This document shows, one piece after another, positions 2-15,263 of a stretch of 32,000 bases of DNA. The stretch comes from Nitratidesulfovibrio vulgaris str. Hildenborough (lineage in GTDB: Bacteria; Desulfobacterota; Desulfovibrionia; Desulfovibrionales; Desulfovibrionaceae). The notes under the pieces are model-generated. The model was not told the origin of the DNA. It ran no database searches and saw nothing but the letters and a program-made list of their open reading frames with translations. Location: positions 150,001 through 182,000 of the forward strand of contig NC_005863.1 of the NCBI RefSeq assembly GCF_000195755.1. Reading direction: 5' to 3'. The translations under genes and the position numbers were made by a program. Within the stretch, counting starts at the first letter, position 1, and every line of letters begins with the position of its first letter.

Positions 2-1243
2 GCCACGGTGGACAAGCTTTCCGGCACGGGCCTCATCTCGCAGGGGCGTCAGCAGAAGGAGTCGGGCCAGTCGAATCAGGCGCAGCGCGGCGGGCAGGCC
101 TCGCAGCAGGATTCGGGCGGGGCGCAGGACGGTCAGCAGGTGAGCATCATGGCCGACCCGCGCGTCAACGCCGTCATCGTGCACGACGCCGTGTACCGGA
201 TGCCCTACTACGAGTCGGTCATCGGCGACCTCGACAGGCCGGTCGAACTCGTGGAGATACACGCCGCCATCGTCGACATCGACACCAACTTCAAGCGCGA
301 CCTCGGCGTCACCTATCAGGCCACGGTGGGCAAGGACCAGCGGTGGGCGGGCGGTGCCGACGTATCCACGGGCACCGACAAGTTCACCCCCCTGCCCGTA
401 CCCGGCGTGCCGCAGGGCAGCGGCCTGACCCTCTCCACCATCTACACCATGGGGTCGGACTACTTTCTCGCCCGCATCAACGCCCTCGAGAAGAACGGCG
501 AGGCCCGGATGCTGGGGCGGCCCTCGGTGCTGACCGTGGACAACGTGCAGGCCACCCTCGAGAACACCAGCACCTATTATATACAGGTGCAGGGCTATCA
601 GGCCGTCGACCTCTTCAAGGTCGAGGCGGGCACGGTGCTGCGCGTGACGCCGCACATCATCAACAACGACGACGGCACCGACGCCATCAAGCTGGTGGTG
701 AGCGTGCAGGACGACCAGAACAACCAGACCACGCCGACCTCGACCTCCACCACGCAGGCCATCCCGCCCATCAAGCAGACGAAGATCAACACGCAGGCCA
801 TCATCGGCGCGGGACAGAGTCTGCTGATTGGCGGCTACTACTACGAACAGAAGGCCACCAGCGCCGACGGCGTGCCCATCCTCATGAACATCCCGGTGCT
901 GGGCAACCTGTTCAAGACCCAGTCGAAAGAGAACAAGAGGATGGAACGCCTCATCCTCATCACCCCCAAGGTGGTGCGCCTCGACAACCTGCCGGGGACC
1001 CCGCCACGGGTCGACGACCCCGCCTTCCACCGCACGGCCACCCAGTCGGACTATGCCGAACGCACCCCCACGCCGCCCCCGTCGCGCCGTAGCGGTTGCA
1101 GCCGCGCGCCCGACAATGCGCCGGAAGCGGCTTCGGGTGCGGCAGGTGGCACGGGAGGAACAGGGGTGACAGCGAACACAGAAGGCGGCACCACGCCCCA
1201 AGCGGCCACATCCCCTGTCCCTGCGTACGGAGTCGCCCCATGA
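2..1243 (+). CDS. sctC: T3SS outer-membrane secretin SctC (YscC family). It is 5' truncated by the window edge and has a Pro/Gly/Thr-rich C-terminal tail.
   Basis: Secretin C-domain motifs are present (GRPSVLTVDNVQATLE, PILMNIPVLGNLFK, ERLILITPKVV). The ORF is open to the window start. It overlaps the next gene by ATGA. Confidence 0.9.
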   Translation, partial: ATVDKLSGTGLISQGRQQKESGQSNQAQRGGQASQQDSGGAQDGQQVSIMADPRVNAVIVHDAVYRMPYYESVIGDLDRPVELVEIHAAIVDIDTNFKRDLGVTYQATVGKDQRWAGGADVSTGTDKFTPLPVPGVPQGSGLTLSTIYTMGSDYFLARINALEKNGEARMLGRPSVLTVDNVQATLENTSTYYIQVQGYQAVDLFKVEAGTVLRVTPHIINNDDGTDAIKLVVSVQDDQNNQTTPTSTSTTQAIPPIKQTKINTQAIIGAGQSLLIGGYYYEQKATSADGVPILMNIPVLGNLFKTQSKENKRMERLILITPKVVRLDNLPGTPPRVDDPAFHRTATQSDYAERTPTPPPSRRSGCSRAPDNAPEAASGAAGGTGGTGVTANTEGGTTPQAATSPVPAYGVAP

Positions 1244-3048
1244 GCAGTAGCGGCGACATCATCCTTCGCGTCTTCTCCGGCCCCCATACGGGGGCCGAGG
1301 TGGTGCTTCCGCCCGGCGACCATGTCATCGGCACCGAAGACTCGTGCGACATCATCCTCTCCGACGGCGGGCTTGCGCCACGCCACGTCTCCATCGGCGT
1401 CACCGCCGGAGTGCCCGGTGCGCCATCCACCGTCCACATCACCCCGCTTGACGGCCCGGTGCGCTACGACGATGCCGAGGTGCCCGCCACGGGCGTGACC
1501 CTCGCCCCGGCGACCCCCTGCCACATCGGGGAGACCTGCCTTGCATGGAACACCCCCGGCGCACCGTGGGAGACCTTCGACCTGACACCGCGCCAGTCCG
1601 TGACGGCTGCCGACGCGGCAGCGGGAACATCCGCCATGGCGGGTGGCGACCCTGCGGCGTCCACGCTTTCCGCCAATGCGGCCGCCAGTGCATCCCCATC
1701 GGGCGCGGCGGGCGATGCCCCCTCGGGCGCATCCCAGACGCCAACACTTTCGGCAACGCCTGCCAACGAAGTTGACGACCTCGTACTCGGCAGCCCCACC
1801 CGGCCCCACCACGAAAAACGCTGGCGGTCGGCCCTGCTGGCTGCCGCCGTCATGCTGCTGTGCACCAGCACGGTGGTCATCACCCTTGAGACACGCCCGC
1901 CCGCACCCCCTGAACGCGCGGCGCACCTTGCGGCGCAGCTTCATGCCGCGGGACTGACCGCCTTGCGCGTCGAGGCACGCCCCGAAGGGGTGGTCGTCTC
2001 CGGGCTGCTGGACGACGAGGCACAGCGCATCCGCCTGTGGGACATGGCACGGAACCTGCTGTACCGGGTACAGCTTGAGGTGGCTGTGCGCAGCGACGTG
2101 CTGCACGCCGTGAAAGCCGCCTTCAACAGCCGTGGCATCTACCCCGAGGTGACGTTCATGCCCGCCGCCGACACCACGCCCACCACACCGCCCCTGTCCG
2201 CGCAGGCCATGCCCAAGGCTGTGCCGGGTACGCCCGACGCCGGGACGGGTCTCGCGCAAAGCCCAGACACGGCGACCACCAGCATGGCGGGCACCGGCAC
2301 GGCAGCGAGTGGCGTTGCGGGTACAGGCGGCAACGGCGGCAACAACAGCGACGGAAAGAGCATCGGCGGCATGACGGCAGGCACCGTGCCCGCCGGGGCT
2401 GCGACGCTGGCATCCGCCCCGCTTGCGACCCCGCAAGCCAAGGCGGGTCTGCGTGTCGCGGGCTACATGCGCGACGGCGTGGTGGAGGCATGGGCCTTCG
2501 ACGCGCTGCGCGAAGACGTGCCGCAGATGCCGCACGTCACCCGCGACCTGCGCTATGCCAGTCAGGTGGCCCCCGTCCTCGACCCGCTGCTTGCCGACGC
2601 GGGGCTGAAGCATGTGCAGACGCGTTACCTTTCAGGCGTGGTGCAACTCTCCGGCGACCTCGACGCGGCACAGCGCGAGGCCCTCGACACCGTGCTGGCG
2701 CAGACGCGCACGCGGCTTCAGGTCGACATCCCCTTCGAGGTCGTCCAATCGGCCCCGGCACCCGACAAGAAACAGCAGGAGGCCCCCGCCCCGGTGGCGG
2801 GCCGCGGCTTCACCCCCGCACGGCAAGAGGCCGCAGCCCCGGCACAGGCCGAGGGGCCACAGGGCATCGACGTGCGCAGTGTCACTCTCACGCCGTTACG
2901 CTTCGTCACCACGGGCGACGGACAACGCATCTTCGAAGGCGGCATGCTGCCGGGCGGCTATGTCGTCGAATCCATAAGCACCACCGAACTCCATCTGCGC
3001 AAGGATGGACGTTCCACCATCTACCGACTGAGAGGTTCCCATGACTGA
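1240..3048 (+). CDS. sctD: T3SS inner-membrane ring protein SctD (YscD family). It has an N-terminal FHA-like domain, one TM segment and a periplasmic domain.
   Basis: The ATG at 1240 overlaps the sctC stop (ATGA). The N-terminus MSSSGDIILRVFSGPHTGAEVVLPPGDHVIGTEDSCDIILSD is a typical YscD FHA fold signature. The TM segment is WRSALLAAAVMLLCTSTVVITL. Its position after sctC fits the family. Confidence 0.8.
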   Translation: MSSSGDIILRVFSGPHTGAEVVLPPGDHVIGTEDSCDIILSDGGLAPRHVSIGVTAGVPGAPSTVHITPLDGPVRYDDAEVPATGVTLAPATPCHIGETCLAWNTPGAPWETFDLTPRQSVTAADAAAGTSAMAGGDPAASTLSANAAASASPSGAAGDAPSGASQTPTLSATPANEVDDLVLGSPTRPHHEKRWRSALLAAAVMLLCTSTVVITLETRPPAPPERAAHLAAQLHAAGLTALRVEARPEGVVVSGLLDDEAQRIRLWDMARNLLYRVQLEVAVRSDVLHAVKAAFNSRGIYPEVTFMPAADTTPTTPPLSAQAMPKAVPGTPDAGTGLAQSPDTATTSMAGTGTAASGVAGTGGNGGNNSDGKSIGGMTAGTVPAGAATLASAPLATPQAKAGLRVAGYMRDGVVEAWAFDALREDVPQMPHVTRDLRYASQVAPVLDPLLADAGLKHVQTRYLSGVVQLSGDLDAAQREALDTVLAQTRTRLQVDIPFEVVQSAPAPDKKQQEAPAPVAGRGFTPARQEAAAPAQAEGPQGIDVRSVTLTPLRFVTTGDGQRIFEGGMLPGGYVVESISTTELHLRKDGRSTIYRLRGSHD

Positions 3049-3250
3049 ACCGCGCGCATCGGCGTTCGACCTTGCCGACGACCACTCCGGCGTCAAGGCC
3101 CGCGCCCTGAAGGAAGAACTGCTCACCCTCGACATGTCGGTGAAGCGCACCATGGACGCCGGGCTCACCCCCGACGACATGAAGGTGGCACAGGCCGCCC
3201 GCGACGCCGTTCAGGCCGCGTCGCGCGTGGTCGAGGCCCTTTCCCGCTGA
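3041..3250 (+). CDS. Small helical protein, YscE/PscE-like needle co-chaperone. The call is positional.
   Basis: It is 69 aa, predicted helical, lies immediately upstream of the needle gene and overlaps the sctD stop by 8 nt. Its size and position match yscE in the Ysc order. Confidence 0.5.
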   Translation: MTEPRASAFDLADDHSGVKARALKEELLTLDMSVKRTMDAGLTPDDMKVAQAARDAVQAASRVVEALSR

Positions 3251-3275
3251 CCCCGTAAACCCGCAGGAGGATACC

Positions 3276-3527
3276 ATGAACGTCGGTAACGCCCCCGGAC
3301 TCGACCTTGGCAAGATGTTCCAGACAGGTGTCGACAGCCTCGGTGACAAGGGCAAGGCACTTCAGGACAAGATGGGCACGCTCATGCAGCAGGAACAGGT
3401 CAGCCCTGAGCAGATGCTGCAACTGCAATTCGAGATGGGCCAGTACAACGCCACACTCGAAGCGCTGTCGTCGGTCACCAAGAGCATGACGGACATGCTG
3501 AAGAGCCTTTCGCAGCGCACCGGCTAG
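3276..3527 (+). CDS. sctF: T3SS needle filament protein SctF (YscF/PrgI/MxiH family)
   Basis: It is 83 aa with an AGGAGG RBS. The helix-turn-helix needle pattern is present, with C-terminus QLQFEMGQYNATLEALSSVTKSMTDMLKSLSQR. Confidence 0.85.
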   Translation: MNVGNAPGLDLGKMFQTGVDSLGDKGKALQDKMGTLMQQEQVSPEQMLQLQFEMGQYNATLEALSSVTKSMTDMLKSLSQRTG

Positions 3528-3721
3528 CACCGCGTGCGGGTGTGTGGGGGGCCGCGGCCCCGCCCGCTCCGCCCGTCACGGGCGCAGCCGTCATGCGGCT
3601 ATCGCGCCCCATGGTGCGCATGTCGTGCGCGTGACGCGCTCATGTAGCGCACATGTCGCGCCCGTATCACACCCGGCTTGTGTCCGGCCTGTGCCAGTTT
3701 GCCTGAACAGAGGAGAGAACC

Positions 3722-4087
3722 GTGTTTTCAGATTCCGACATATCGCTGTTGCTCGATGTGGCCAACGCCGCCTGCCATAAGGGCCATGTGGCCGACGCCC
3801 GCAGCATCTACGAAGGTGTGCTGGCCGTGCGCCCCGGCTTCGCCCCCGCACGTCTCGGGCAGGCCCTCAGCCACGCCGTGGTCAACGAATTCGCAGAGGC
3901 AGAACGCATCATCAACGAAGAGGTGCTGGCAGAAGCCCCCGAAGACACAGATGCCAAGGCCCTGCTGGGCCTGACCTACTTCCTCGCCGGACGCGACGAA
4001 GAGGCCCGGGACGTGCTGCGTCCCGTGGCAGAGGGCGACACCCCTGCCGCCTATGTCGCAAGGGGACTTCTGGAAGGCATCCGCTAG
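3722..4087 (+). CDS. TPR-like needle chaperone (YscG/PscG-like)
   Basis: It has a GTG start with an upstream GAGGAGAG RBS and is 121 aa. The TPR-like sequence is ARSIYEGVLAVRPGFAPARLGQALSH...ALLGLTYFLAGRDEEARDVL. It sits after sctF, as yscG does. Confidence 0.6.
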   Translation: MFSDSDISLLLDVANAACHKGHVADARSIYEGVLAVRPGFAPARLGQALSHAVVNEFAEAERIINEEVLAEAPEDTDAKALLGLTYFLAGRDEEARDVLRPVAEGDTPAAYVARGLLEGIR

Positions 4088-4129
4088 CCCCGCCCACGGG
4101 GGCGCAACGGCACTGCGACCGGAGACGCC

Positions 4130-4945
4130 ATGGACATAGCCGCCGTCGGCAAGGCGTCGTCACGCCTTCTTGAGGCGCTTGAGAAGTTGAGTTCCTCGCC
4201 GGGGGCCGACCTCAAGAGCGCGACCGGGCCTTCGGGCCAGCCAGACCCTGAACTGGTGCGCGCCTTTCTGGACGCGCTGGAGGGTACGGGTGGTGCGTCG
4301 TCGGGTCTGCAAGGCGGTGCTGGCGGGCAGGGTCTATCCGGCCCCACGGCCCTGTCCGATGACGGGCCGGGAGGCTTGCCGCTGCACGGCGGGCCGGAGG
4401 CCATGCCCGGTGTCGGGCCCGATATCGGGCCCGAAGCGGCATCGGGGATAGGGTCTGACACGCGGCCCGACGCCGTGCGGGGCAAGGCCGCGTCAGGCGG
4501 CATTGAGGACGGACACGACCCGACACGGCCCGAGGCCACGGGTGTGCCGGAAGGAACGGGCGCAACGGATAAGACGGGCACCACCTATCATGTGGACGAT
4601 GCGGCACGCCGCACCGGAGTAGAAGAGATGGGCCTCGGCGAGACGTCGCCTACGTCACCGCAAGGCGCAGACCGCACGCACGCGCCCGATGGCGTGCGCA
4701 CCTCGCCCGAAGTGCCGGGAACGGGCCACGAATCCGGCGCAGGGCGCGGTGCCTCCGGGGCGGATGACCCGCTGCGCGAACTGGCGCGACTGGTCGAACG
4801 GGTTGCCACCGGGCAGCCCACGCCCACCGAACTCTACAGGCTGCAATACATGGTGGGCATGTTGCGGCTTCAGGCATCGAGCGGTACTCAGGTTTCACAG
4901 CAGGCTACGCAGGGTCTCGAATCCCTGCTCAAGCAACAGGGCTAA
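4130..4945 (+). CDS. sctI: T3SS inner rod protein SctI (YscI/PrgJ family) carrying a ~160-aa Gly/Pro-rich internal insertion
   Basis: The N-terminal ELVRAFLDALEG and the C-terminal ELYRLQYMVGMLRLQASSGTQVSQQATQGLESLLKQQG resemble the conserved ends of YscI-type rods. The gene lies directly upstream of sctJ. Confidence 0.6.
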   Translation: MDIAAVGKASSRLLEALEKLSSSPGADLKSATGPSGQPDPELVRAFLDALEGTGGASSGLQGGAGGQGLSGPTALSDDGPGGLPLHGGPEAMPGVGPDIGPEAASGIGSDTRPDAVRGKAASGGIEDGHDPTRPEATGVPEGTGATDKTGTTYHVDDAARRTGVEEMGLGETSPTSPQGADRTHAPDGVRTSPEVPGTGHESGAGRGASGADDPLRELARLVERVATGQPTPTELYRLQYMVGMLRLQASSGTQVSQQATQGLESLLKQQG

Positions 4946-4969
4946 TCCGCCACCGAGCGAGAGGACACG

Positions 4970-5785
4970 ATGGGACGACGCGACAGGGCATACGGACTTC
5001 TGGCCACATGGCGAAACGTCGCGTTGGCGGCACTTCTGCTTGTGCTCCTCACCGGCTGCAAGGCTGAACTCTACAAGGGTTTGAACGAGGAACAGGCCAA
5101 CACCATGCTGGCTACCCTCCTCAAGCGCGGCATCGAGGTCGACAAGCAGTCCGAGGGCAAGAACGGCTATACGCTGAGCGTCGAACGCAGGCAGGTGGTG
5201 CAGGCCCTCGAGGTGCTGCGCGAGAACAGCCTCCCGCGCGAGCAGTACCAGAGCCTCGGCAAGGTCTTCTCCGGCGATGGCATGATCGCCTCGCCCTCCG
5301 AAGAGAAGGCCCGCCTCTCGTACGCCATCTCGCAGGAACTGGCAGACACCTTCTCGCGCATCGACGGCGTGCTGACGGCCCGCGCCCACGTTGTGCTGGC
5401 CTCGTCCGACGTGGGCACCGACACCCGCACCCCCGCCTCGGCTGCCGTCTTCCTGCGCCACACCGAAGACTCGCCCGTGGTCAACCTCATCCCCAAGATA
5501 CGCGAGATGACAGCCAAGGCCGTGCCGGGGCTGGACTACGAGAAGGTGTCGGTCATGCTGGTGCCCGTGCGCGAGAGCGTCACCGTGCCCCTGCGCGACG
5601 CCCCCACCCTGCTGGGCATTCCGCTGCCTTCCGATTCGGGGCCCTCGTACCTTCTCGCCGGGGCCGCCATCGCGCTGCTGTGCGCCCTTCTCGCCCTCGC
5701 CCTCATGGGCGTGCGTGCGGGGCTTGCCACGCTCGAGGCCCGCAAGAACGCAGCTGCCGACGCAAAGCAGCACGGCGGAGACTAG
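4970..5785 (+). CDS. sctJ: T3SS inner-membrane ring lipoprotein SctJ (YscJ/PrgK family)
   Basis: A lipobox LLTGC is followed by ELYKGLNEEQANTMLATLLKRGIEVDK...YTLSVE, the typical YscJ N-terminus. A C-terminal TM segment is present. Confidence 0.9.
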   Translation: MGRRDRAYGLLATWRNVALAALLLVLLTGCKAELYKGLNEEQANTMLATLLKRGIEVDKQSEGKNGYTLSVERRQVVQALEVLRENSLPREQYQSLGKVFSGDGMIASPSEEKARLSYAISQELADTFSRIDGVLTARAHVVLASSDVGTDTRTPASAAVFLRHTEDSPVVNLIPKIREMTAKAVPGLDYEKVSVMLVPVRESVTVPLRDAPTLLGIPLPSDSGPSYLLAGAAIALLCALLALALMGVRAGLATLEARKNAAADAKQHGGD

Positions 5786-5791
5786 CCCACC

Positions 5792-6715
5792 ATGAACCGG
5801 GCGTTCTTTCTGGATATCCTGCGACGCAAGCCGGCCCTGTTCCAGGCCATGCTCGCGTTCAACGCCGAAGGGTCGCCGTCTGCGTCGGGACTTGCCGACG
5901 TGCTGACGCGGGCCGTACCGGGCATCGACGCAGGGCTGTTGCTCACATCTCCCGACGTCCGCAGACGCCTCACCGCACTGTGCCCTGTGGCTGCGCCCGG
6001 TGAGACGGCTGCGGGTGCGCCGGGCCACGGCGCGGCTGGCAGCACAGCTGGCAAGACATCCGGCAGCACACCGGGCAACACCTTTGGCCCCGACACAGCA
6101 ACATCCGGCGAGCGGGCTTCCGAGGCTACGGCCCCCGGCGCACCGGCTTCGGGCGCACCGCGCGTGCCCTTCTGGGATTTCGCCGAAGAATCGCGCAGAC
6201 TCGCCCTGCTGCCCGCCCCCGCCGTGGACAGGCTGGCCCTCACCTTCGGCGCGGCACTGCACGGCAACGCCTTCGCCGTCCTCGTCCGGCGCGACGACGT
6301 GCTCACCCTGCGCGCCGCCCTCGGTGAAGACCTCTACGCCTACGGGCTGCACCGGGGCCGCTACCAGCTTGGCGGCGTGCGTCGCCACTTCTCGCCGCTG
6401 CGCGACGCCGAACGCACGGGCGAGGGCATCGCCCGGCGCATCCGCACCGACGGCCTCACCGCGCTTGGCGTGTGCATCGCCCGCTGGCCCGACGTGCTGC
6501 GGCGTCGGCTGGTCTGGCCCGACAGCATGTCTGGCATCTCCTCGGGCAACACCCCCGGCAACACCCCCGAAGACATCACAGCCGACATCATCTCCGGCAC
6601 CTCTCCCCGGTGGGACGAGGCGCGCAGGCAGGCCGCATGGCCCGACATCTGGTTCTCGCTACGGAAACTGCTCCTCAAGGAGGTCGCACCGCAATGGGCG
6701 CCCTGTTTCGACTGA
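5792..6715 (+). CDS. sctK: Putative sorting-platform protein SctK (YscK-like), with a low-complexity insert
   Basis: The call rests on its position between sctJ and sctL. The C-terminal half (RRLALLPAPAVDRLALTFGAAL...LRAALGEDLYAYGLHRGRY) resembles YscK/HrpD5-type proteins. This family is weakly conserved. Confidence 0.5.
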   Translation: MNRAFFLDILRRKPALFQAMLAFNAEGSPSASGLADVLTRAVPGIDAGLLLTSPDVRRRLTALCPVAAPGETAAGAPGHGAAGSTAGKTSGSTPGNTFGPDTATSGERASEATAPGAPASGAPRVPFWDFAEESRRLALLPAPAVDRLALTFGAALHGNAFAVLVRRDDVLTLRAALGEDLYAYGLHRGRYQLGGVRRHFSPLRDAERTGEGIARRIRTDGLTALGVCIARWPDVLRRRLVWPDSMSGISSGNTPGNTPEDITADIISGTSPRWDEARRQAAWPDIWFSLRKLLLKEVAPQWAPCFD

Positions 6716-7311
6716 ACGCCAGCACCGTCGTCCCCGCTGCGGGCCGCCGCGTGTTGCGCGCGGCTGATGCCGCCCTGCTGTGCGAGGCGCAGGACATCCT
6801 TGCCGCCGCCCGTGAACGTGCCGCCGCGCTGGAACGCGAGGCCGAAGAGGCCTACGCCAGACGCCTTGACGAGGGCTACAACGACGGTCTCGAACAGGGC
6901 CGCATGGAACACGCCGAGAAGGTGCTTGAGACCGTCCTCTCCTCTGTGGAGTTCATCGAGGGCATCGAAGGCACGGTGGTGCGCGTGGTCACCGAGTCCA
7001 TCCGCAAGGTCATCGGCGAGATGGACGACGACGAACGCATCGTGCGCATCGTGCGCAACGCCCTCGTCGCCGTGCGCAACCAGCAGCGCGTGACCATCCG
7101 CGTGGCCCCCGCAGACGAGAAGGCCGTCACCGAATCGCTTGCCGCCATGCTGCAACGCGCCCCCGGCAGCGTGGGCTTTCTCGACGTGGTGGCCGACCCG
7201 CGCCTTGCGCGGGGGGCGTGTCTGCTTGAAAGCGAACTCGGCGTGGTGGACGCCAGCCTCGAGACCCAACTTGCCGCGCTGGAGAAGGCGTTCCATGCCA
7301 AGATCAGGTGA
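6694..7311 (+). CDS. sctL: T3SS stator/ATPase regulator SctL (YscL/FliH family)
   Basis: An internal ATG at 6694 is preceded by AAGGAGG (6678-6684). The product is 205 aa. A charged coiled N-terminus (EAQDILAAARERAAALEREAEEAYARRLDEGY) is followed by a FliH-like C-domain. Confidence 0.8.
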   Translation: MGALFRLNASTVVPAAGRRVLRAADAALLCEAQDILAAARERAAALEREAEEAYARRLDEGYNDGLEQGRMEHAEKVLETVLSSVEFIEGIEGTVVRVVTESIRKVIGEMDDDERIVRIVRNALVAVRNQQRVTIRVAPADEKAVTESLAAMLQRAPGSVGFLDVVADPRLARGACLLESELGVVDASLETQLAALEKAFHAKIR

Positions 7312-7433
7312 CGCACCCCTGCGGGCGAGGGCGGCAGCAGCCCGGCATCCGAAGAAGAACGCCCCCCTTGTGCGCCCGCCGACCCTCTCCGGTGCCGTGC
7401 GCCATTTCGCGGACACCTCGGCGGCTGGCCTTT

Positions 7434-7504
7434 CCGGGCCTGACCTTCAGCAGGCACACCTTCAAGGGGCACACCTTAAGGGGACACATATCACCGGGCC
7501 TGAC
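7434..7504. promoter_or_regulatory. Direct-repeat cluster in the sctL-sctN intergenic region, a candidate regulator binding site
   Basis: CCGGGCCTGAC occurs exactly at 7434-7444 and 7494-7504. These two copies flank three tandem ~14-bp units: GGCACACCTTCAAGG, GGCACACCTTAAGG, GGACACATATCACC. Confidence 0.3.
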
Positions 7505-7638
7505 TCTTACAGGACGGCCCCTTACGGCGTGGCGACATCGTTCCGGGCGGCAGCGCACAGGCACCGCACCCCCACGACGGCAACCGCCGCCGTGCCCCGC
7601 CACCCTGCAACACACCGCGCCCCGCGGCAGGAGTCGGC

Positions 7639-8955
7639 ATGGCCTTCGAATACATAGGCCCGCTGCTTGAAGAGGCCGTCAACAGCGGCCCCTCGGTCGA
7701 GGTGCGCGGTCGCGTCGAACAGGTGGTGGGAACCATCATCCGCGCCGTGGTGCCCGGGGTGAAGGTCGGCGAACTGTGCCTGCTGCGCAACCCGTGGGAC
7801 GACTGGAACCTGCGGGCAGAGGTGGTGGGTTTCGTCAAGCATGTGGCGTTGCTCACGCCGCTGGGCAATCTTCAGGGCATCTCGCCCGCCACGGAGGTCA
7901 TCCCCACTGGCGAGATTCTCTCCATCCCCGTCGGTGAAGACCTCTTGGGGCGCGTCCTCGACGGCCTTGGCGACCCCATCGACGGCGGCCCGCCGCTGAA
8001 GCCGCGCACCCGCTACCCCGTCTACGCCGACCCGCCCAACCCCATGACGCGCCGCATCATCGACAGGCCCATCTCGCTGGGGCTGCGTGTCCTCGACGGG
8101 GTGCTCACCTGCGGCGAAGGCCAGCGCATGGGCATCTTCGCGGCTGCGGGCGGCGGCAAGAGCACCCTACTCTCGAGCATCATCAAGGGATGCTCTGCGG
8201 ATGTGTGCGTGCTCGCGCTCATCGGTGAACGCGGGCGAGAGGTGCGCGAGTTCATCGAACACGACCTCGGCCCCGAAGGACGCAAGAAGGCGGTGCTGGT
8301 GGTATCCACCTCTGACCGTTCGTCCATGGAACGGCTGAAGGCCGCCTACACGGCGACCGCCATCGCCGAATATTTCCGCGACCAGCGGCGCAGCGTGCTG
8401 CTGATGATGGACTCGGTGACGCGCTTCGGACGCGCCCAGCGCGAGATAGGGCTGGCAGCGGGCGAACCGCCCACGCGCCGGGGCTTTCCGCCGTCGGTCT
8501 TCTCGACCCTGCCGCGCCTCATGGAACGTGCGGGCAACTCCGACAGGGGTTCCATCACCGCGCTGTACACCGTGCTGGTGGAAGGCGACGACATGACAGA
8601 ACCCATCGCCGACGAGACGCGCTCCATCCTCGACGGGCACATCGTCCTCTCGCGCAAGCTGGCGGCAGCCAACCACTACCCCGCCATCGACGTGCAGGCC
8701 AGCGTCAGCCGCGTCATGAACGCCATCGTCGGCAAGGAGCACAAGGGCGCGGCGCAGAAGCTGCGCAAGATTCTCGCCAAATACGCCGAGGTGGAACTGC
8801 TGGTGCAGATTGGCGAATACAAGAAGGGTTCCGACAAGGAGGCCGACGACGCGCTGGCGCGTGTGGGCGCGGTGAACGCCTTCCTGCGGCAGGGTCTCGA
8901 CGAGCGAAGCACCTTCGACGAGACGCTGGCGGCCCTGTACAAGGCCACGGAGTAA
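7639..8955 (+). CDS. sctN: T3SS ATPase SctN (YscN/InvC family)
   Basis: Walker A is [14 protein letters not shown] and Walker B is [11 protein letters not shown]. An F1-like ATPase fold signature runs throughout. An AGGAG RBS is present. Confidence 0.97.
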
Positions 8956-8958
8956 CAC

Positions 8959-9453
8959 ATGGCCCGCGCCGCCTATCCGCTGCAACCGCTGCTCGACGTA
9001 CGGCACTTCCGCGAGAACGCGGCGGCAGGGGCGTTGCGCCTTGCCGAACGCGCCCTGCGCGAGGCCGAGGACGACGAACAGCGTCGGCGCGACGAACTGG
9101 CGGCCTACCGCGCATGGCGGCCCGACGAGGAAGAGAGACGCTACGACGCCATCATGGGGCAGGTCATGGCCCTCGCCGACCTCGACCGCTTCAAGGCGGG
9201 GCTGGCGGCCCTCGCACAGGGTGAACTGCTGCGCGAGGAGGAGGTTCGCACGGCGGAACGCGCCACCGAAGCCTGCCGCAAGGCGGTGCTCGCCGCGCGC
9301 GAGGCTGCGGCGCAGGCACGGCGCGACACCATGAAGATAGCCACGCACCGCGACATCTGGCGCGAGGCGGCACGGCGCGAGGCCGAACGGCTTGAAGACC
9401 TCGAGATGGAAGAGTTCAGAACGCCCCCCTCACCGGAGGGCGACGACCTGTGA
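8959..9453 (+). CDS. sctO: T3SS stalk protein SctO (YscO/FliJ-like coiled coil)
   Basis: It is a 164-aa, Arg/Glu/Ala-rich coiled coil directly downstream of sctN. Confidence 0.7.
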   Translation: MARAAYPLQPLLDVRHFRENAAAGALRLAERALREAEDDEQRRRDELAAYRAWRPDEEERRYDAIMGQVMALADLDRFKAGLAALAQGELLREEEVRTAERATEACRKAVLAAREAAAQARRDTMKIATHRDIWREAARREAERLEDLEMEEFRTPPSPEGDDL

Positions 9454-9483
9454 CCACGATGACGCGTGAAACGGCGGGAACAC

Positions 9484-10158
9484 ATGGCTGATTTTCTGAA
9501 GATCGACGCGGAACGGCTCGACCGTGCCGTCGCCCACGAAGAGGGACGCAAGACGCCACCTTCATCGCAGGAGGTGGATGCCTTCGACCGGGTCATGCAG
9601 CGCCCCGGCGACGAACGGCAGAACGGCTCTCATGACGGCATGGAGGGCGACGGTGATACGGGCGCGGATGGCGCCCCCGATACCGGTACCGACACCCTGC
9701 CCGGTGCCACGGCCTCGCCGTTCCAGTTGCTGGGCGGGGCCATGCAGGGCCTGCTCACCCTGCACGGCGCAGAGGCGGCAGAGGGCGCACAGCAGCCCCA
9801 CGCCATGACCGACGCCGACAGCCTCGCCAGCACACTGGTCGAGCGCATCCTCGTCTCCTCGCCCGGTTCCGGCACTGCCGAGATTCGCATCATCCTCGGC
9901 GACGGCGTGCTGCCCGGTACCGAGATTCACCTCGCACGCGGGGCCGACGGCCTTCTCTCCGTCTCGCTACAGACCACCGACCCCGGCTCGTTCCAGAGTC
10001 TGGTCGCCGCCCGCGACGGGCTGCAACAGCGGCTGGAACGCCTCGAACAGGGGCAGGTGCGCGTGGAGGTGAGTCAGGAGGCGCGGCCCGACGACGGCGA
10101 CGCCGACCGCAGGTCGGCAGGCTACATGACGCAACAACCCGACGAGGAGCGACGCTAG
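9484..10158 (+). CDS. sctP: Needle-length/substrate-switch protein SctP (YscP-like, C-terminal T3S4 domain)
   Basis: It lies between sctO and sctQ. The C-terminal LVERILVSSPGSGTAEIRIILGDGVLPGTEIHLARGADGLLSVSLQ resembles the T3S4 domain of YscP/FliK. The start is ambiguous (GTG 9466 or ATG 9484). Confidence 0.6.
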   Translation: MADFLKIDAERLDRAVAHEEGRKTPPSSQEVDAFDRVMQRPGDERQNGSHDGMEGDGDTGADGAPDTGTDTLPGATASPFQLLGGAMQGLLTLHGAEAAEGAQQPHAMTDADSLASTLVERILVSSPGSGTAEIRIILGDGVLPGTEIHLARGADGLLSVSLQTTDPGSFQSLVAARDGLQQRLERLEQGQVRVEVSQEARPDDGDADRRSAGYMTQQPDEERR

Positions 10159-10159
10159 C

Positions 10160-11614
10160 GTGCCCACCACTCCCGCATCCGCCCCGCATCAGGGTAGTAC
10201 TCCCTCAAGTCAGGGCCACACGCCTCCAAGTCAGGGCCACACGCCTCCAAGTCAGGGCCACACGCCCGCGAGTTCAGGCGTCATTCCCGCGCTCAGGCCG
10301 CCACGGGTCTCTCCGGCGGCCACGGCCCTGCTCAACGTGCTGCACACCCGCAGCCAGCCGTGGCGCGTTCAGGCGGGCACCCTCGCCTGCGGTCTCTCTG
10401 TCCCGGTGGAACAGCTTCCGTTCGTTCCGGCGTACAGCTTCAGGCTGCTCATCGGTGACGCCTCGTGCCGTCTCGACGCCGGGGCGGGCCTGCCGGTGCA
10501 CAGCCACCCCGCGCTGGCGGGCGTGCAGGGCGACGTGGACCTGCCCGACGCCCTGCGGCTGGCCCTCGCCGAATTGCTTCTGGCCCCCCATTGCACCGCG
10601 CTGGCAACCCTTCTGGGCACCACCGTCCGGGCCGAGGCCATGGAGACGCCCCCGGCGGCCTCCACAGACGCCGCCCCCGGTGTGGCTTCGGGCACGAGTG
10701 CGGGGCACGATGCACCGCCCCCCGGCAGTTGCGCCGTGGTGCTTGCACTCTCCGTCCCGACAGGTGACACAAAGGGCGGCACGGCAGCTGGCGGGACGAC
10801 GCCCGCCCCGGATACCGGCGGTGATGGCGACAACCGCGACAGCGGCAGCGCGGGCCATACCGTCGTGCCCCTGCGGTTGACGCTGCCCGTGGCCCTTGCC
10901 ACCTCACTGGCGGCGCAACTCATGGCCCTGCCCGAACGCCACACCCCGCGCGAGGACATTCCCGTCACCGTCACCATCGAAGCCGGAAGGATGCGCCTTG
11001 CCGCGCATGAACTGGCGACGCTGGCCGTCGATGACGTGCTGCTGCCCGAAGACTACCCCGCCCTGCGCGGGCGCATCGCCCTCATGACAGGGCCGCACGC
11101 CTTCGCCTGCTCCCTGACCGAAGGGCGGGCCACCGTGCTCGACGCCACGCCCGCACCGAACACCCCGGAGTCACCCATGAGCGACCAGCAGACCCCCGAA
11201 GTCCCCGCAGGGCTGGATACCGCAGCCCTCGAAGTGGACATCGTCTTCGAACTCGAACGCCGCACCATGAAGCTGAACGACCTTGCGGCCCTCGCCCCCG
11301 GCTACACCTTCGCCCTCGGCACCGACCCCCTCGCCCCGGTGACGCTGCGGGTGCAGGGACGGAACATCGGGCGCGGGCGACTCGTCGACCTTGACGGTAC
11401 GCCCGGCGTGCAGGTGCTGCACCTTGAGAGCGCATCGCCCCATCAGGCAGACGGCGGCGGGGCAGCCGGTGCAGGAACCGGTACGGCTACGGGTGCAGGC
11501 ATGTCGGGCGGTGCTGGTGGCACGCCTACTGGCAGCGCGACAGCCGGAACGTCCACCGGCAGCACTGCCGGCGCGACCGCAAGGCCCCCCCTGTCCACGG
11601 GAGACGACGCGTGA
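10160..11614 (+). CDS. sctQ: Sorting-platform/C-ring protein SctQ (YscQ/SpaO family), with long low-complexity inserts
   Basis: The C-terminal SpoA/FliN-like domain reads EVDIVFELERRTMKLNDLAALAPGYTFALGTDPLAPVTLRVQGRNIGRGRLVDLDG. Its position before sctR fits the family. Confidence 0.8.
   Translation: MPTTPASAPHQGSTPSSQGHTPPSQGHTPPSQGHTPASSGVIPALRPPRVSPAATALLNVLHTRSQPWRVQAGTLACGLSVPVEQLPFVPAYSFRLLIGDASCRLDAGAGLPVHSHPALAGVQGDVDLPDALRLALAELLLAPHCTALATLLGTTVRAEAMETPPAASTDAAPGVASGTSAGHDAPPPGSCAVVLALSVPTGDTKGGTAAGGTTPAPDTGGDGDNRDSGSAGHTVVPLRLTLPVALATSLAAQLMALPERHTPREDIPVTVTIEAGRMRLAAHELATLAVDDVLLPEDYPALRGRIALMTGPHAFACSLTEGRATVLDATPAPNTPESPMSDQQTPEVPAGLDTAALEVDIVFELERRTMKLNDLAALAPGYTFALGTDPLAPVTLRVQGRNIGRGRLVDLDGTPGVQVLHLESASPHQADGGGAAGAGTGTATGAGMSGGAGGTPTGSATAGTSTGSTAGATARPPLSTGDDA
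10206..10268 (+). repeat. In-frame 21-bp tandem repeat x3 in the 5' part of sctQ
   Basis: CAAGTCAGGGCCACACGCCTC occurs at 10206, 10227 and 10248. The third copy has 2 mismatches. The repeats encode SQGHTPP x3. Confidence 0.9.
11177..11614 (+). CDS. Candidate internally translated SctQ-C (SpoA domain only), nested in frame within sctQ
   Basis: An in-frame ATG at 11177 is preceded by GGAG (11167-11170). It lies just upstream of the SpoA domain and would give 145 aa. Confidence 0.35.
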   Translation: MSDQQTPEVPAGLDTAALEVDIVFELERRTMKLNDLAALAPGYTFALGTDPLAPVTLRVQGRNIGRGRLVDLDGTPGVQVLHLESASPHQADGGGAAGAGTGTATGAGMSGGAGGTPTGSATAGTSTGSTAGATARPPLSTGDDA

Positions 11615-12261
11615 CAGGCGTAGCCCCACTGTATTTCATCGCGGGCATGGCCCTGCTGGGTCTTGCGCCGTTCTTCCTGATGATGGTCACCTCGTACGTG
11701 AAGATCGTGGTCGTCACCTCGCTGGTGCGCAACGCCCTCGGGGTGCAGCAGGTGCCGCCCACCATGGTCATGAACGGCCTCGCCATCATCCTGAGCATCT
11801 TCATCATGGCCCCGGTGGCCTCGGGCACCCTCGACCTCATGCAGAACATGAAGATCGGCCCCGACCCGGCCCCGCGTGAGATCATCGCCCTGCTGGACAA
11901 GGCCTCGCCCCCGCTGCGCGGCTTTCTCGAACGCAACGCCGACGACAAGGTCGTAACGGTGTTCATGAGCACCGCCAAGCGCATCTGGCCCGCCGACCAG
12001 CACGCCAGCATCTCGCGCGACAACCTGCTCATCCTCATTCCGTCGTTCACCATCTCCGAACTGACGCGGGCCTTCCAGATTGGCTTTCTGCTCTATCTGC
12101 CCTTCGTCGCCATCGACCTTGTCATCTCCAACATCCTGCTTGCCATGGGCATGATGATGGTCTCGCCCATGACCATATCGCTGCCCTTCAAGCTGCTTCT
12201 CTTCGTCACCCTCGACGGCTGGCTCAAGGTCAGTCAGGGGCTGCTTCTCAGTTACCGCTAG
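11611..12261 (+). CDS. sctR: T3SS export-apparatus protein SctR (YscR/FliP family)
   Basis: A FliP-family signature is present (FFLMMVTSYVKIVVVTSLVRNALGVQQVPP, GFLLYLPFVAIDLVISNILLAMGMMM). The GTG start overlaps the sctQ stop. Confidence 0.93.
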   Translation: MTGVAPLYFIAGMALLGLAPFFLMMVTSYVKIVVVTSLVRNALGVQQVPPTMVMNGLAIILSIFIMAPVASGTLDLMQNMKIGPDPAPREIIALLDKASPPLRGFLERNADDKVVTVFMSTAKRIWPADQHASISRDNLLILIPSFTISELTRAFQIGFLLYLPFVAIDLVISNILLAMGMMMVSPMTISLPFKLLLFVTLDGWLKVSQGLLLSYR

Positions 12262-12291
12262 CACGGGGCCGCGCGCCCCATCGGAGCCTCT

Positions 12292-12627
12292 ATGCAGATT
12301 GTCACCACTGAACGCGACGGCATCACCGTCATCTCCCTCACCGGGCGCATGGACGCCACCACCGTGGCCTCGTTCGACGAGGCATGGCGCACCTGCCTCG
12401 ACAACGGGGCGCGGCGCATCGTCGTCGACCTTGGCGGCGTGGAGTACATAAGCTCGGCGGGGCTGCGGGGCATCCTCTCGCTGCTCAAGGCGAGCAAGGC
12501 GGCGAAGGGCGGACTGGCCTTCTGCAATGTGGGACAGATGGTGGCAGAGGTGTTCCGCATCTCCGGCTTCACGTCGATGCTCGCCGTGTTCCCCGGTCTC
12601 GACGAGGCCCTCGCCTCTCTCGCCTAG
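12292..12627 (+). CDS. STAS-domain anti-sigma-factor antagonist (SpoIIAA/RsbV/BtrV-like)
   Basis: It is 111 aa, with ITVISLTGRMDATTVASFDE...IVVDLGGVEYISSAGLRGIL. This is a typical STAS fold, with the conserved phospho-acceptor Ser context ISSAGL. Confidence 0.85.
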   Translation: MQIVTTERDGITVISLTGRMDATTVASFDEAWRTCLDNGARRIVVDLGGVEYISSAGLRGILSLLKASKAAKGGLAFCNVGQMVAEVFRISGFTSMLAVFPGLDEALASLA

Positions 12628-12642
12628 CCGGAGGACGGACGC

Positions 12643-13059
12643 ATGGCCACCCTCTCTGTTCCGGCAAGCATCGAGCACCTCGCCACGGTCAACGCCTTCA
12701 TCGCCGAGCATATGCCCGAGCAGCATCGCGGCATCATCCCGCAGGTGGAGCTCACCGCCGAAGAACTGCTGGTGAACGTGTTCAGCTACGCCTACCCCGA
12801 CAGCCCCGGCAAGGCCGAGGTGGGCTGCCGTGTCGTGCTGTTCGACGACGCGCCCTTCTTCTGCCTCACCGTCAGGGACTGGGGCGCACCGTTCAACCCC
12901 TTCAGCGAGGCACCCACGCCCGACACCTCGCTGGATGTGGAGGAACGGCCCGTGGGCGGTCTCGGGGTGCATCTCATCAAGTCCATGGTGGGGCATTACA
13001 GCTACAGCCACCACGAGGCGTCGAACCACATCGAACTCTACTTCCCCCTCGGCGACTGA
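12643..13059 (+). CDS. Anti-sigma factor / serine protein kinase of the RsbW/SpoIIAB/BtrW type (HATPase_c)
   Basis: It is 138 aa. It has an N-box-like EELLVNVFSYAY, a G1-like VRDWGAPFNP and a G2-like GGLGVHLIKSM. It sits directly after the STAS gene. Confidence 0.8.
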   Translation: MATLSVPASIEHLATVNAFIAEHMPEQHRGIIPQVELTAEELLVNVFSYAYPDSPGKAEVGCRVVLFDDAPFFCLTVRDWGAPFNPFSEAPTPDTSLDVEERPVGGLGVHLIKSMVGHYSYSHHEASNHIELYFPLGD

Positions 13060-13069
13060 CGGGGGCACC

Positions 13070-14422
13070 ATGCACCACACCCGCGCCACGCATCCCCACC
13101 GCACCATGCCCGCCACGAAGCGGACATGGCCCGCGCTGGCGGGGTGCTGCGCGCTGGCGGTGCTGGTGCTCGGCCCGTGGGAGACGGTGACGGCGGAGAC
13201 GGGACAGCCCGCACTGTACGGCATCATCTCCGAAGAGGTGAACGTCTCTGAACGCCAGCCCGTGCGCCTTGTGCCGCATGGCCCCCTCGTGCGCGGTGCG
13301 ACGCCCGGTGCGGGCGGTGTGCCCGATGACTCCGATGTGCCCGGCGCAAACGTTGCGGGTGGCGCAAACGGCGCGGACAAGACGAACGGTACACCCGATG
13401 CGGACGGTGCGCCCCACGCCAACAGTGGGCATGGTGTGCATGGCGTAGATGGTCTGGATGACGCGGATGCAGCCACGGCCTCTGCCCGCGTCCCGGCGTC
13501 ATCCGCAGACGTCGCCTCCGGTCACGCCGAGACCACCACACCCCCGGCAGATACCGCCGGGGTGATGCCGCAAACGGCAGTGCCGCAACGACCTGCCCGC
13601 CCGGTACGGCCGGACGCACAGACCGCAACGCACAGCCCTGCGCCATCCGGCATCCCTCATGCCGTGGGCGATGGGGCACGGGTCGCACCTTCGGGAAGGG
13701 CGTCCGGCACCACGACGTCCCAACCGTCCGGCCCGGCTGCAAGACCGGCGGATGCCCCGGCAGCCGTGACGACGGCAACGCCTGCGTCCGCAACACGTTA
13801 CGGTACGACTTCCGGCACGGTGCACTCCATCCCGTCCGTCTCGCAACACGCTACCGCGTCCGTCTCGGAACACGCTACCGCGTCCGCATCGCAACACGCT
13901 ACCGCGTCTGTCTCGCAGCACGCCACAACCTCCGAGAACCTTCTCGACAGCATGGATGTCTACGCCCTCTCGCCCCACGCGGCGCGCCTCGCCCTGCCGC
14001 GCATGGTGCCGGTGGTCGTGGCGGAACGCCTGCGTGTGGCGCGTCCCGCCTTCCCCTTCTGGGAGTCTGCCATCGACAAGGCCAGCCGCACCCACGCCCT
14101 CGACCCGCGCCTCATCGCGGCGGTCATCAGGGCCGAATCGGGCTACGACCCCGGCGCGGTCTCGCCCCGCGGGGCACAGGGCGTCATGCAGATCATGCCC
14201 GCCACGCAACGTGAACTGGGACTCGACGACCCCTTCGACCCCGAAGCCAACGTCGAGGCCGGAAGCCGCTACCTCCGGCAGCAACTCGACCGCTTCGGCA
14301 GCCTCGAACTGGCGCTGGCGGCCTACAACGCAGGCCCCGGCAACGTGCTGAAATACGGCGGGATGCCCCCGTTCGACGAGACCCGCACCTTCGTGCGGCG
14401 CGTACTGGACGGCATGCGATGA
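13070..14422 (+). CDS. Secreted lytic transglycosylase (SLT domain) with a ~280-aa low-complexity N-terminal extension. It is likely the T3SS-specialised peptidoglycan hydrolase.
   Basis: The C-terminal SLT motifs are AVIRAESGYDPGAVSPRGAQGVMQIMPAT and LALAAYNAGPGNV. A signal-like MPATKRTWPALAGCCALAVLVLG is present. The start is ambiguous (13070 or 13106). Confidence 0.8.
   Translation: MHHTRATHPHRTMPATKRTWPALAGCCALAVLVLGPWETVTAETGQPALYGIISEEVNVSERQPVRLVPHGPLVRGATPGAGGVPDDSDVPGANVAGGANGADKTNGTPDADGAPHANSGHGVHGVDGLDDADAATASARVPASSADVASGHAETTTPPADTAGVMPQTAVPQRPARPVRPDAQTATHSPAPSGIPHAVGDGARVAPSGRASGTTTSQPSGPAARPADAPAAVTTATPASATRYGTTSGTVHSIPSVSQHATASVSEHATASASQHATASVSQHATTSENLLDSMDVYALSPHAARLALPRMVPVVVAERLRVARPAFPFWESAIDKASRTHALDPRLIAAVIRAESGYDPGAVSPRGAQGVMQIMPATQRELGLDDPFDPEANVEAGSRYLRQQLDRFGSLELALAAYNAGPGNVLKYGGMPPFDETRTFVRRVLDGMR
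13835..13930 (+). repeat. In-frame 24-bp tandem repeat x4 inside the transglycosylase gene
   Basis: Units of the form TCCGTCTCGCAACACGCTACCGCG start at 13835, 13859, 13883 and 13907. They diverge progressively and encode SVSQHATA-like octapeptides. Confidence 0.9.
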
Positions 14423-14795: not shown

Positions 14796-15263
14796 ATGAC
14801 CATTCGTGAAAACGCACAGCAGATTCTCGACGGGCTGGCCGAAACGCTTCAGTGCGGCCCTCTGGCCTTTGACGACGCCAACAAGGTCGATTTCGGCATC
14901 GATGAGGACATGGGCGCCATCATCTACCTCTCCGAAGACACGTCCAGCCTCGTGGTGAGCATCATCCCCGGCAGGGTCGACCCCGACGACACCGGGCTTC
15001 TCTACGACATCCTCTGCGGCAACTACATGTGGGGCTTCTCTGCGGGCGGCAACATGGGCATCGACCGCGAGACGGGCCTTCTGTCCATCCACCGTCTCAT
15101 CGAACTTCCCGTAGATGTGGCAGGCGACCCCATGGCCTTCCCTGAACTCTTCGCCGCCATGGTCGGCGCTGCACGGTACTGGCGCGCACGCCTCGCCCCC
15201 GAAGGCACGGCCCCCGCAGCCTCCGGCGCACCGACCGACTTCTCCGGCATGATCCGCATCTAA
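14796..15263 (+). CDS. Class I T3SS effector chaperone (CesT/SycE/SicP-like)
   Basis: It is 155 aa and acidic, with an AAGGAG RBS. The pattern LAFDDANKVDFGIDEDMGAIIYLSEDTSSLVVSIIPGRV...LLYDILCGNYMW...GIDRETGLLSIHRLIEL is typical of Tir-chaperone-family proteins. Confidence 0.7.
   Translation: MTIRENAQQILDGLAETLQCGPLAFDDANKVDFGIDEDMGAIIYLSEDTSSLVVSIIPGRVDPDDTGLLYDILCGNYMWGFSAGGNMGIDRETGLLSIHRLIELPVDVAGDPMAFPELFAAMVGAARYWRARLAPEGTAPAASGAPTDFSGMIRI

Follow-up and report, generated by a model that had tools for sequence, protein, structure and literature searches.

A STAS antagonist and an RsbW-like kinase behind sctR: parts of a putative partner switch in the Ysc-type type III secretion cluster of Nitratidesulfovibrio vulgaris

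In Nitratidesulfovibrio vulgaris str. Hildenborough, a stretch of 32,000 nucleotides (contig NC_005863.1, positions 150,001 to 182,000 of the forward strand; hereafter the window) carries a long type III secretion system (T3SS) operon and, within it, adjoining genes for a STAS-domain-only protein and an RsbW/SpoIIAB-type serine kinase, which are the subject of this analysis. The window was read from a list of its open reading frames (ORFs), from GC content by codon position and from hidden Markov model (HMM) scans against Pfam and NCBIfam; genes lying beyond it were taken from the RefSeq annotation of plasmid pDEVAL01 of N. vulgaris RCH1 (NC_017311.1, the excerpt of which is called L001), a window position being the record position minus 144557. 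From 11600 to 14500 the window is 100% identical to pDEVAL01 and 96-98% identical to two other N. vulgaris pDV1-type megaplasmids. The original prediction had placed the pair directly after the export-apparatus gene sctR, on the same strand, across a 30-nt gap and where sctS, sctT and sctU would be expected. Both ORFs have the positions and lengths it gave (Table 1), sctS-T-U do not follow sctR, and it is the gene of an SLT-family lytic transglycosylase that follows the pair. The third-position GC of the STAS and kinase frames, 0.89 and 0.88, matches that of the neighbouring T3SS genes. Judged by its markers, namely YscX, a YscY-like TPR gene, SycN, an HrpJ+TyeA gatekeeper, YscO and YscP, the cluster is a Ysc-type T3SS, and the structural matches of SctV (775 bits to the LcrD-type 7alw vs 487 to SsaV) and SctN (541 bits to a Ysc-family structure vs 428 to EscN) are consistent with this.

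Table 1. Features of the T3SS cluster around the STAS-kinase pair. Positions are those of the window unless L001 or NC_017311.1 is named; numbers after family names are E values.
Feature	Position	Strand	Basis
sctS-sctT-sctU	L001 7445-9564 = NC_017311.1 132444-134563	-	RefSeq
sigma54-dependent Fis-family activator, DVUA0100	L001 5670-7397	-	RefSeq
sctC (cut), sctD, needle sctF, TPR chaperone, hypothetical gene, sctJ, sctK-like, sctL, sctN, sctO, sctP, sctQ	8..11614	+	Pfam, NCBIfam, RefSeq
sctR, export-apparatus subunit	11611..12261	+	PF00813 2e-64; NF009438 EscR/YscR/HrcR 3.4e-87; TIGR01102 yscR 9.5e-77; RefSeq sctR
sctR-STAS spacer, 30 nt	12262..12291	+	GGAG ribosome-binding site 12283-12286; too short for promoter
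STAS-domain-only protein, DVUA0123-type, 111 aa	12292..12627	+	PF01740 6.8e-21
RsbW/SpoIIAB-type serine kinase, DVUA0124-type, 138 aa	12643..13059	+	PF13581 5.7e-19
Kinase N box, E41-N45 (E-E-L-L-V-N motif)	12763-12777	+	GHKL motif
Kinase G1 box, D79-x-G81-x-x-F84 (RsbW-type)	12877-12894	+	GHKL motif
Kinase G2 box, G105-G-L-G108	12955-12966	+	GHKL motif
SLT-family lytic transglycosylase, DVUA0125, last gene of long T3SS operon	13070..14422	+	PF01464 1.1e-28; RefSeq CDS L001 32628-33980
Two sigma54-type -24/-12-like sites ahead of CesT gene	14648-14663 TGGCACAGACGATGCG; 14751-14766 TGGCACGGAGATTGGA	+	pattern match only
CesT-family chaperone	14796-15263	+	PF05932 7.4e-26
826-aa protein	15323-17803	+	no Pfam or NCBIfam match

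The STAS protein matches PF01740 over residues 3-106 of its 111, and further matches were obtained to PF13466 (6.4e-16) and to TIGR00377, 'anti-sigma factor antagonist' (5.7e-21), the latter at 74.4 bits and above the curated cut-off of 53.45. Among PDB structures it matches the SpoIIAA-type proteins 4hyl (3.7e-10) and 1th8_B (1.4e-7); against the NCBIfam SpoIIAA equivalog model it scores 44.6, far under the cut-off of 114.75. Residues 53-58 read I-S-S-A-G-L, which is the phospho-serine context recognised in the original prediction, and Ser55 (codon 12454-12456), the predicted phospho-acceptor, aligns with the phospho-acceptor serine of SpoIIAA (Ala in PDB 1tid_B). The surrounding motif, EYISSAGLR, is unchanged in all 10 T3SS-linked STAS orthologues. 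By both its fold and its conserved serine the protein belongs with the SpoIIAA/RsbV-type STAS-only antagonists. The kinase ORF matches PF13581 (HATPase_c_2) over residues 6-132 of 138, and a profile of 24 orthologues matches the RsbW structure 6m36 at 4.5e-6; across these orthologues E40, E41, L, L, V, N45, D79, G81, F84, R102 and G105-G108, which include positions of the N, G1 and G2 boxes, are invariant. Its match to the RsbW model NF003144 is weak (1e-3), with a score of 18.5 vs an equivalog cut-off of 145. Given this score and the lack of a sigma gene in or near the cluster, the kinase is RsbW-like in fold and motifs but is not classed here as an anti-sigma factor. The scans place neither ORF in an unrelated family, so the STAS and RsbW-type assignments first proposed are upheld.

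Several features indicate that the pair is transcribed with the T3SS genes around it. The gaps from sctR to the STAS gene, from there to the kinase gene and on to the SLT gene are 30, 15 and 10 nt, all on one strand, and the kinase gene has its own Shine-Dalgarno sequence (GGAGG, 8 nt upstream), as does the STAS gene (Table 1). A promoter scan from sctR to the SLT gene gave neither a sigma70-like nor a -24/-12 site, and a promoter or terminator belonging to the pair itself was therefore rejected; the sole terminator-like hairpin sits inside the kinase ORF (12829-12852) and is one match vs 2.5 expected by chance. Transcription independent of the cluster, which would have counted against the original prediction, accordingly finds no promoter or credible terminator in the sequence between sctR and the SLT gene. 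Across the whole locus the -24/-12 pattern occurs at chance level (10 found vs 9.2 expected), and for this reason each such site counts by its position only; the two sites between 14648 and 14766 would, by position, show where the operon of the pair ends downstream. In a published sigma54 regulome of D. vulgaris Hildenborough, the enhancer-binding protein (EBP) DVUA0100 is predicted to drive DVUA0106-DVUA0099 and DVUA203-DVUA0125 (PMC4641369). DVUA0123 and DVUA0124 fall within the second of these predicted operons, and the promoter sites found by an independent scan, at L001 14459(-) and 14851(+), are those of file 6 of that study (PMC4641369).

The remaining export-apparatus genes lie in a divergent operon, annotated between 5 and 16 kb upstream of where the window begins, in the order sctW, sycN, yscX, a yscY-like TPR gene, sctV, sctS, sctT, sctU, the EBP gene, a 124-aa ORF and a gene for a PP2C phosphatase. 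The genes sctS-T-U have thus been relocated behind sctV and not lost. The order sctV-sctS-sctT-sctU-EBP recurs in three related loci (L086, L088 and L091), which makes this rearranged Ysc layout a hallmark of the family. In the four loci examined (these three and L001) an EBP gene follows sctU without exception. As a transcription factor of its own the cluster thus has an enhancer-binding protein instead of a sigma factor. An HMM scan gave no receiver, PAS or GAF domain in the EBP, and its N-terminus, conserved and helical or coiled-coil over about 100 aa, matches nothing in Pfam. In 118 of 120 homologues (P0163-P0282) the GAFTGA loop reads G[VI]ATGV, with GFATGV and GSATGV in the other two, and activation of sigma54 by this protein is only predicted. 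The regulome study likewise gives GVATGV for DVUA0100, together with a long N-terminal region of unassigned function (PMC4641369). The N. vulgaris copy also has two long low-complexity insertions. A resemblance by eye between the EBP N-terminus ('RLAEAFGMMLV') and the HAMP domain of the phosphatase ('QLARAFAFMGE') was set aside: Pfam gave no HAMP match at E = 10, and a profile-profile comparison aligned only 15 columns at 20% probability. The 124-aa ORF ('DORF807', L001 5299-5673, - strand), considered as a fourth component, was likewise rejected: it has no family match, is rich in Arg, Pro and Cys, and is without counterpart in L086 or L088, where the EBP and PP2C genes abut. It is probably a spurious reading of the 375-nt spacer and not a gene.

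The phosphatase, DVUA0099, is a protein of 724 aa that RefSeq names 'SpoIIE family protein phosphatase', and its gene, the last of the divergent operon, lies about 26 kb from the pair. A transmembrane (TM) segment at 7-28 is followed by some 350 aa that give weak Cache matches, a second TM segment at 385-408, a HAMP domain and the PP2C/SpoIIE domain (PF07228, 1.2e-48, residues 528-721). The metal-binding aspartate motifs GGD, GDVSGKG, TDG and DDIT are all intact, and the best PDB comparisons were with Rv1364c (1.2e-14) and a Pseudomonas response-regulator PP2C (4.4e-13). With this catalytic domain and these aspartates DVUA0099 can be assigned to the RsbU/SpoIIE-family PP2C phosphatases. The original prediction had seen neither a PP2C nor a sigma gene in the window, and the HMM scans agree on both counts. 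When the search which it proposed was carried to the replicon, it succeeded for the phosphatase, found beyond the window as DVUA0099, and failed for the sigma factor, none being annotated from record position 100000 to the window end (~76 kb); the gene tables of related T3SS loci list none either. As far as can be judged from the genes present, the partner switch is complete within the T3SS cluster, but split between two operons.

A survey of other loci argues that the position of the pair is not accidental. The kinase has at least 178 relatives among database entries at E of 1e-3 or better; taking one genome per species gave 80 loci, which were screened by tblastn with 18 cluster proteins. 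In all 10 other distinct loci with a kinase 43-70% identical, the order sctQ-sctR-STAS-kinase is present wherever upstream DNA is present, which bears out the expectation that the same insertion would be found at related T3SS loci. These 10 come from Bilophila wadsworthia ATCC 49260, from metagenome-assembled genomes (MAGs) of Desulfovibrionaceae and from a few contigs binned under other names, and SctN in T3SS-linked loci is 83-93% identical. By comparison, none of the 71 loci with a kinase at most 42% identical has T3SS genes within 10 kb; these are ordinary PP2C-STAS-kinase cassettes, the nearest of them from Syntrophobacteraceae and Desulfoferrobacter. The place of the pair next to sctR is therefore not a chance juxtaposition but a constant trait of the Ysc-type T3SS in Desulfovibrionaceae. 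Since the gene after the kinase varies, being the SLT gene in 5 related loci and a different one in others, the conserved unit is sctR-STAS-kinase, and the SLT protein was rejected as an obligate third partner. On the evidence of sequence and synteny the description of the pair as a T3SS-associated partner-switching module is well supported.

Two of the loci, L011 and L013 (SctN 83-84% identical), are binned as 'Sutterella' and 'Acutalibacteraceae', and a third, L012, is a 5-kb contig without sctN labelled 'bacterium'; mis-binned Desulfovibrionaceae contigs would be a more likely explanation of these labels than transfer. When 72,556 plasmids were searched with the kinase by tblastn, the matches were confined to the three N. 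vulgaris megaplasmids and two weak, unrelated ones. Among metagenome proteins one kinase cluster holds 502 member sequences and one EBP cluster 923. Some kinase entries (P0005, P0010, P0011, P0021, P0024 and P0097) bear foreign sequence at the N- or C-terminus, for example SctP/SctQ fragments, STAS or frameshifted tails; these look like chimeric or frameshifted assemblies and not natural fusions. Three of them, P0005 and P0010 (SctP/SctQ fragments) and P0011 (STAS), had been considered as a link to the sorting platform and were rejected as chimeric assemblies or gene calls, the identical kinase sequence standing on unrelated or truncated N-termini, on contigs of about 1.1-1.3 kb for P0010 and P0011 and of 15.5 kb for P0005.

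Given that the pair sits exactly at the point where the canonical yscN-U order is rearranged, and that the gene downstream of the kinase varies, it could be a passenger, that is, a generic stress cassette lodged at the breakpoint which the move of sctS-T-U left behind and with no part in secretion. However, this is highly improbable for several reasons: no T3SS-linked locus of any of the genera has lost the arrangement, neither the catalytic motifs nor the phospho-acceptor motif varies, the spacing is operonic and a matching PP2C gene is found in the same cluster in several lineages. It could also be a canonical anti-sigma module whose kinase holds a chromosomal sigma factor and so reports assembly of the T3SS to a distant regulon, as the family names and best structural matches (RsbW and SpoIIAA) and the closest relatives outside T3SS loci, ordinary PP2C-STAS-kinase cassettes, might suggest. 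This too appears improbable, given that no sigma gene is annotated in the ~76 kb around the pair or in the related locus tables, that many Gram-negative partner switches have non-sigma outputs (PMC8256260), and that the strict linkage to sctR over kinase identities of 43-70% argues for a role internal to the T3SS.

The reading preferred here is that the STAS protein and the kinase are parts of a complete three-component partner switch, dedicated to the Desulfovibrionaceae Ysc-family T3SS and acting after transcription. Taken whole it is held tentatively, as a proposal not quite probable enough to be expected, and its parts differ in strength. That STAS protein, kinase and PP2C form a functional switch is very probable, and that this switch is dedicated to the T3SS is probable. 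A Btr-like output, in which secretion or the production of T3SS proteins would be licensed post-transcriptionally, is a fair guess by analogy and somewhat doubtful when taken alone; it is considered the most likely output because no sigma gene is nearby and because Btr of Bordetella, the sole T3SS-linked module of this type to have been studied, acts after transcription. Co-transcribed with sctC to sctR from the sigma54 promoter of the long operon, the pair would be made only when the machine is made. The kinase would phosphorylate the STAS protein on Ser55, and an extracytoplasmic cue at the Cache domain would activate the PP2C domain and lead to dephosphorylation of the STAS protein. The phosphorylation state of the latter would in turn set whether the kinase is partnered with it or with a second protein.

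The position of the phosphatase gene elsewhere in the family is informative here. Full-length PP2C orthologues, 40-71% identical, occupy several genomic positions: directly after sctU-EBP in L086 (42% identity) and L088 (71%), and, in L087, next to genes for T3SS translocators, CesT and IpgD. In this last locus, a rearranged T3SS locus (GCA_031551765.1), a 229-aa HATPase_c_2 protein (4449-5138), which shares 31% identity with the kinase and is extended by 100 aa at its N-terminus, is encoded divergently from the translocator genes near CesT, IpgD and the PP2C orthologue, with no STAS gene in view. Four points weigh against the preferred reading, or against parts of it. First, some genomes with the T3SS-linked pair have their best PP2C orthologue at a chromosomal site outside the T3SS cluster, near hisA for L085 and L089 and at another place for L090, and a Bilophila-type locus (L091, query 'uncultured Bilophila sp.') has no PP2C gene after sctU-EBP. 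L085 and the T3SS locus L002 belong to the same assembly, so that this genome holds both the PP2C and the pair, unlinked. Because some genomes keep the phosphatase apart from the cluster in this way, DVUA0099 is only probably cognate to the STAS-kinase pair. Second, the nearest kinase relatives outside T3SS loci belong to other Thermodesulfobacteriota modules (L014 and L015), which would fit independent recruitment. Third, the analysis shows gene identities, motifs, operon context, synteny and the architecture of the PP2C protein, but phosphorylation, signal, output and phenotype are all inferred. Fourth, where the PP2C gene is in the cluster it is coupled to the EBP gene, with an overlap of 4 nt in L086, and this coupling speaks no less for an output at the level of transcription.

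Such an output would follow if the RsbW-like kinase were an anti-activator of the sigma54 EBP of the DVUA0100 family: the dephosphorylated STAS protein would remove the kinase, a signal at the Cache-PP2C protein would turn on both sigma54 T3SS operons and, since the four components are themselves encoded there, a feedback loop would result. Besides the constant place of the EBP gene after sctU, this is consistent with the direct coupling of PP2C and EBP genes in three lineages, which in L086 is translational, with the lack of a nearby sigma gene, with the classical role of RsbW-type proteins in sequestering transcription factors and with the presence of all components in the predicted DVUA0100 regulon; moreover, EBPs without a sensory domain are typically controlled in trans (PMC4641369). 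It is nevertheless rather unlikely, though not far behind the Btr-like output, given that transcription in Bordetella is under another pair (BtrS/BtrA) and not under the switch, that the PP2C gene does not adjoin the EBP gene in Bilophila-type genomes, and that the altered loop of 118 of the 120 homologues leaves sigma54 activation by the EBP a prediction. To our knowledge no RsbW-type protein has yet been described that binds an EBP, and if this output were true the module would be, as far as we know, the first partner switch shown to gate a sigma54 activator. The logic, here with STAS and RsbW parts, is comparable to that of PspA acting on PspF, and in Pseudomonas syringae the anti-activator HrpV and the anti-anti-activator HrpG control the sigma54 EBP HrpS. 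There, too, a sensor-less T3SS activator is gated by a binder and a counter-binder encoded in T3SS operons, but HrpV and HrpG are unrelated proteins without STAS, GHKL or PP2C domains, act without phosphorylation and serve an Hrp1-family T3SS.

Returning to the preferred reading of a switch that acts after transcription, its closest counterpart is the Btr system of Bordetella. The Bsc secretion system of Bordetella is also placed in the Ysc family, and both lineages have all three protein families in genetic linkage with a Ysc-family T3SS locus, the comparison being by family and not by sequence. In Bordetella, BtrU, BtrW and BtrV are all needed for secretion by a mechanism that is not established; BtrV acts post-transcriptionally, transcription being controlled separately through BtrS and BtrA (PMC7498569, PMC8256260). 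The BtrV phospho-serine is Ser55 (PMC8256260), the number that the alignment gives for the STAS protein here, and in neither system is there evidence for a sigma factor as the target. In the btr locus alr, an MFS gene (btrO) and an ABC-transporter gene (btrN) are interleaved with btrU, btrW and btrV (PMC7498569). The PP2C orthologues of L086, L087, L089 and L090 have neighbours of the Ala_racemase_N, MFS (760-780 aa) and PF04392 ABC_sub_bind families, and these neighbours, compared by family name only, favour common descent with Btr. The cassette beside the PP2C gene (L086 12064-17223, L090 12060-16955, L089 20027-22019 and L087 5155-6830) consists of PF04392, MFS and Ala_racemase_N-like or GNAT genes; its MFS protein has a long N-terminal extension, and the cassette is absent beside the PP2C gene of N. 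vulgaris. The two systems also differ. In Desulfovibrionaceae the module is split, the STAS and kinase genes standing after sctR in the structural operon, where other clusters have sctS-T-U, and the PP2C gene closing the divergent operon or lying elsewhere, and the sensor of the phosphatase is a transmembrane one of Cache-HAMP type. The sigma54 EBP, whose loop reads G[VI]ATGV, and the predicted -24/-12 promoters here contrast with the ECF sigma factor BtrS and secreted anti-sigma factor BtrA of Btr, and neither scans nor annotation give an ECF sigma gene in or near the N. vulgaris T3SS cluster.

Other partner switches are more distant. Chlamydia trachomatis, which depends on a T3SS, has a Gram-negative partner switch (RsbU-RsbV1/RsbV2-RsbW) of similar sensor-phosphatase layout, RsbU being described as a membrane phosphatase with a periplasmic sensor domain and PP2C output (PMC8256260, citing Soules 2020). 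However, the chlamydial genes are not inside T3SS operons, there are two STAS paralogues vs one here, housekeeping sigma66 has been reported as the target and the T3SS is of another family. The archetypes of these families are the RsbU/RsbV/RsbW-sigmaB and SpoIIE/SpoIIAA/SpoIIAB-sigmaF modules of Bacillus subtilis, whose STAS serine recurs here together with the N, G1 and G2 boxes of the kinase; the Desulfovibrionaceae module differs from them in lacking a co-encoded sigma gene, in equivalog scores far under the cut-offs and in the transmembrane Cache-HAMP input of its phosphatase. The L086 PP2C orthologue has SiaA as its best NCBIfam match (3e-23, 82 bits, far under the cut-off of 700), and the SiaA/SiaB/SiaC-SiaD system of Pseudomonas aeruginosa likewise combines a membrane HAMP-PP2C protein, a kinase and a small phospho-switch protein with a non-sigma output, but SiaC falls outside the classical STAS proteins, and what the system acts on is no T3SS but a diguanylate cyclase with control over biofilm. 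Because its parts are canonical and a link between partner switching and a T3SS is already established in Bordetella, the module is not a new kind of system.

In the published record DVUA0123 and DVUA0124 are listed as anti-sigma antagonist and kinase in the sigma54 operon table of a supplement, the terms 'anti-sigma' and 'phosphatase' being absent from the main text (PMC4641369). A literature search found the locus tags only in that supplementary table and gave no analysis of the two genes and none recognising them as a T3SS switch; for the Desulfovibrionaceae T3SS in general it gave a single paper on how the system is regulated, in which a regulon is predicted computationally, and nothing on its signal, its substrates or its function. 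The pair is thus known at the level of annotation and operon placement, and its proposed role as a switch in the T3SS appears to be new.

The rest of the window was also annotated. The CesT gene and the 826-aa ORF look like a candidate chaperone-effector pair, or operon, of the same T3SS; the two genes (14796-17803) are preceded by the sigma54-type -24/-12-like sites of Table 1. A complete type I-C CRISPR-Cas system (cas3, cas5c, cas8c/csd1, cas7, cas4, cas1 and cas2) occupies 18125-27711, its array (25898-27711) holding 28 copies of a 32-nt repeat, GTCGCCCCCCACGCGGGGGCGTGGATTGAAAC, with degenerate copies near the far end. Beyond the array, on the minus strand at 27828-31501, are genes for a ZIP-family metal transporter, a LuxR-type response regulator and a 7TMR-DISM histidine kinase, in which no evident link to the T3SS was seen. 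Several cluster proteins have long low-complexity inserts that their orthologues are without, and in-frame tandem repeats occur in sctQ (10206-10266, a 21-nt unit repeated 2.9 times and encoding QGHTPPS) and in the SLT gene (13833-13923, a 24-nt unit repeated 3.8 times and encoding SQHATASV).

The Ysc-type T3SS of Desulfovibrionaceae is present in N. vulgaris, in the human pathobiont Bilophila wadsworthia and in many MAGs from gut and animal sources. Should the output prove to be the EBP, the range of what partner-switching modules control would be widened, the module would be a master switch of the T3SS in gut Desulfovibrionaceae such as Bilophila wadsworthia, and the extracytoplasmic cue might be a gut or host signal. 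The family also provides a second lineage to set beside Btr of Bordetella, the mechanism of which has been unsolved since 2004, and a target shared by the two would be a strong candidate. D. vulgaris Hildenborough is genetically tractable, and a built-in switch with an extracytoplasmic Cache sensor would offer a handle on what turns this T3SS on.

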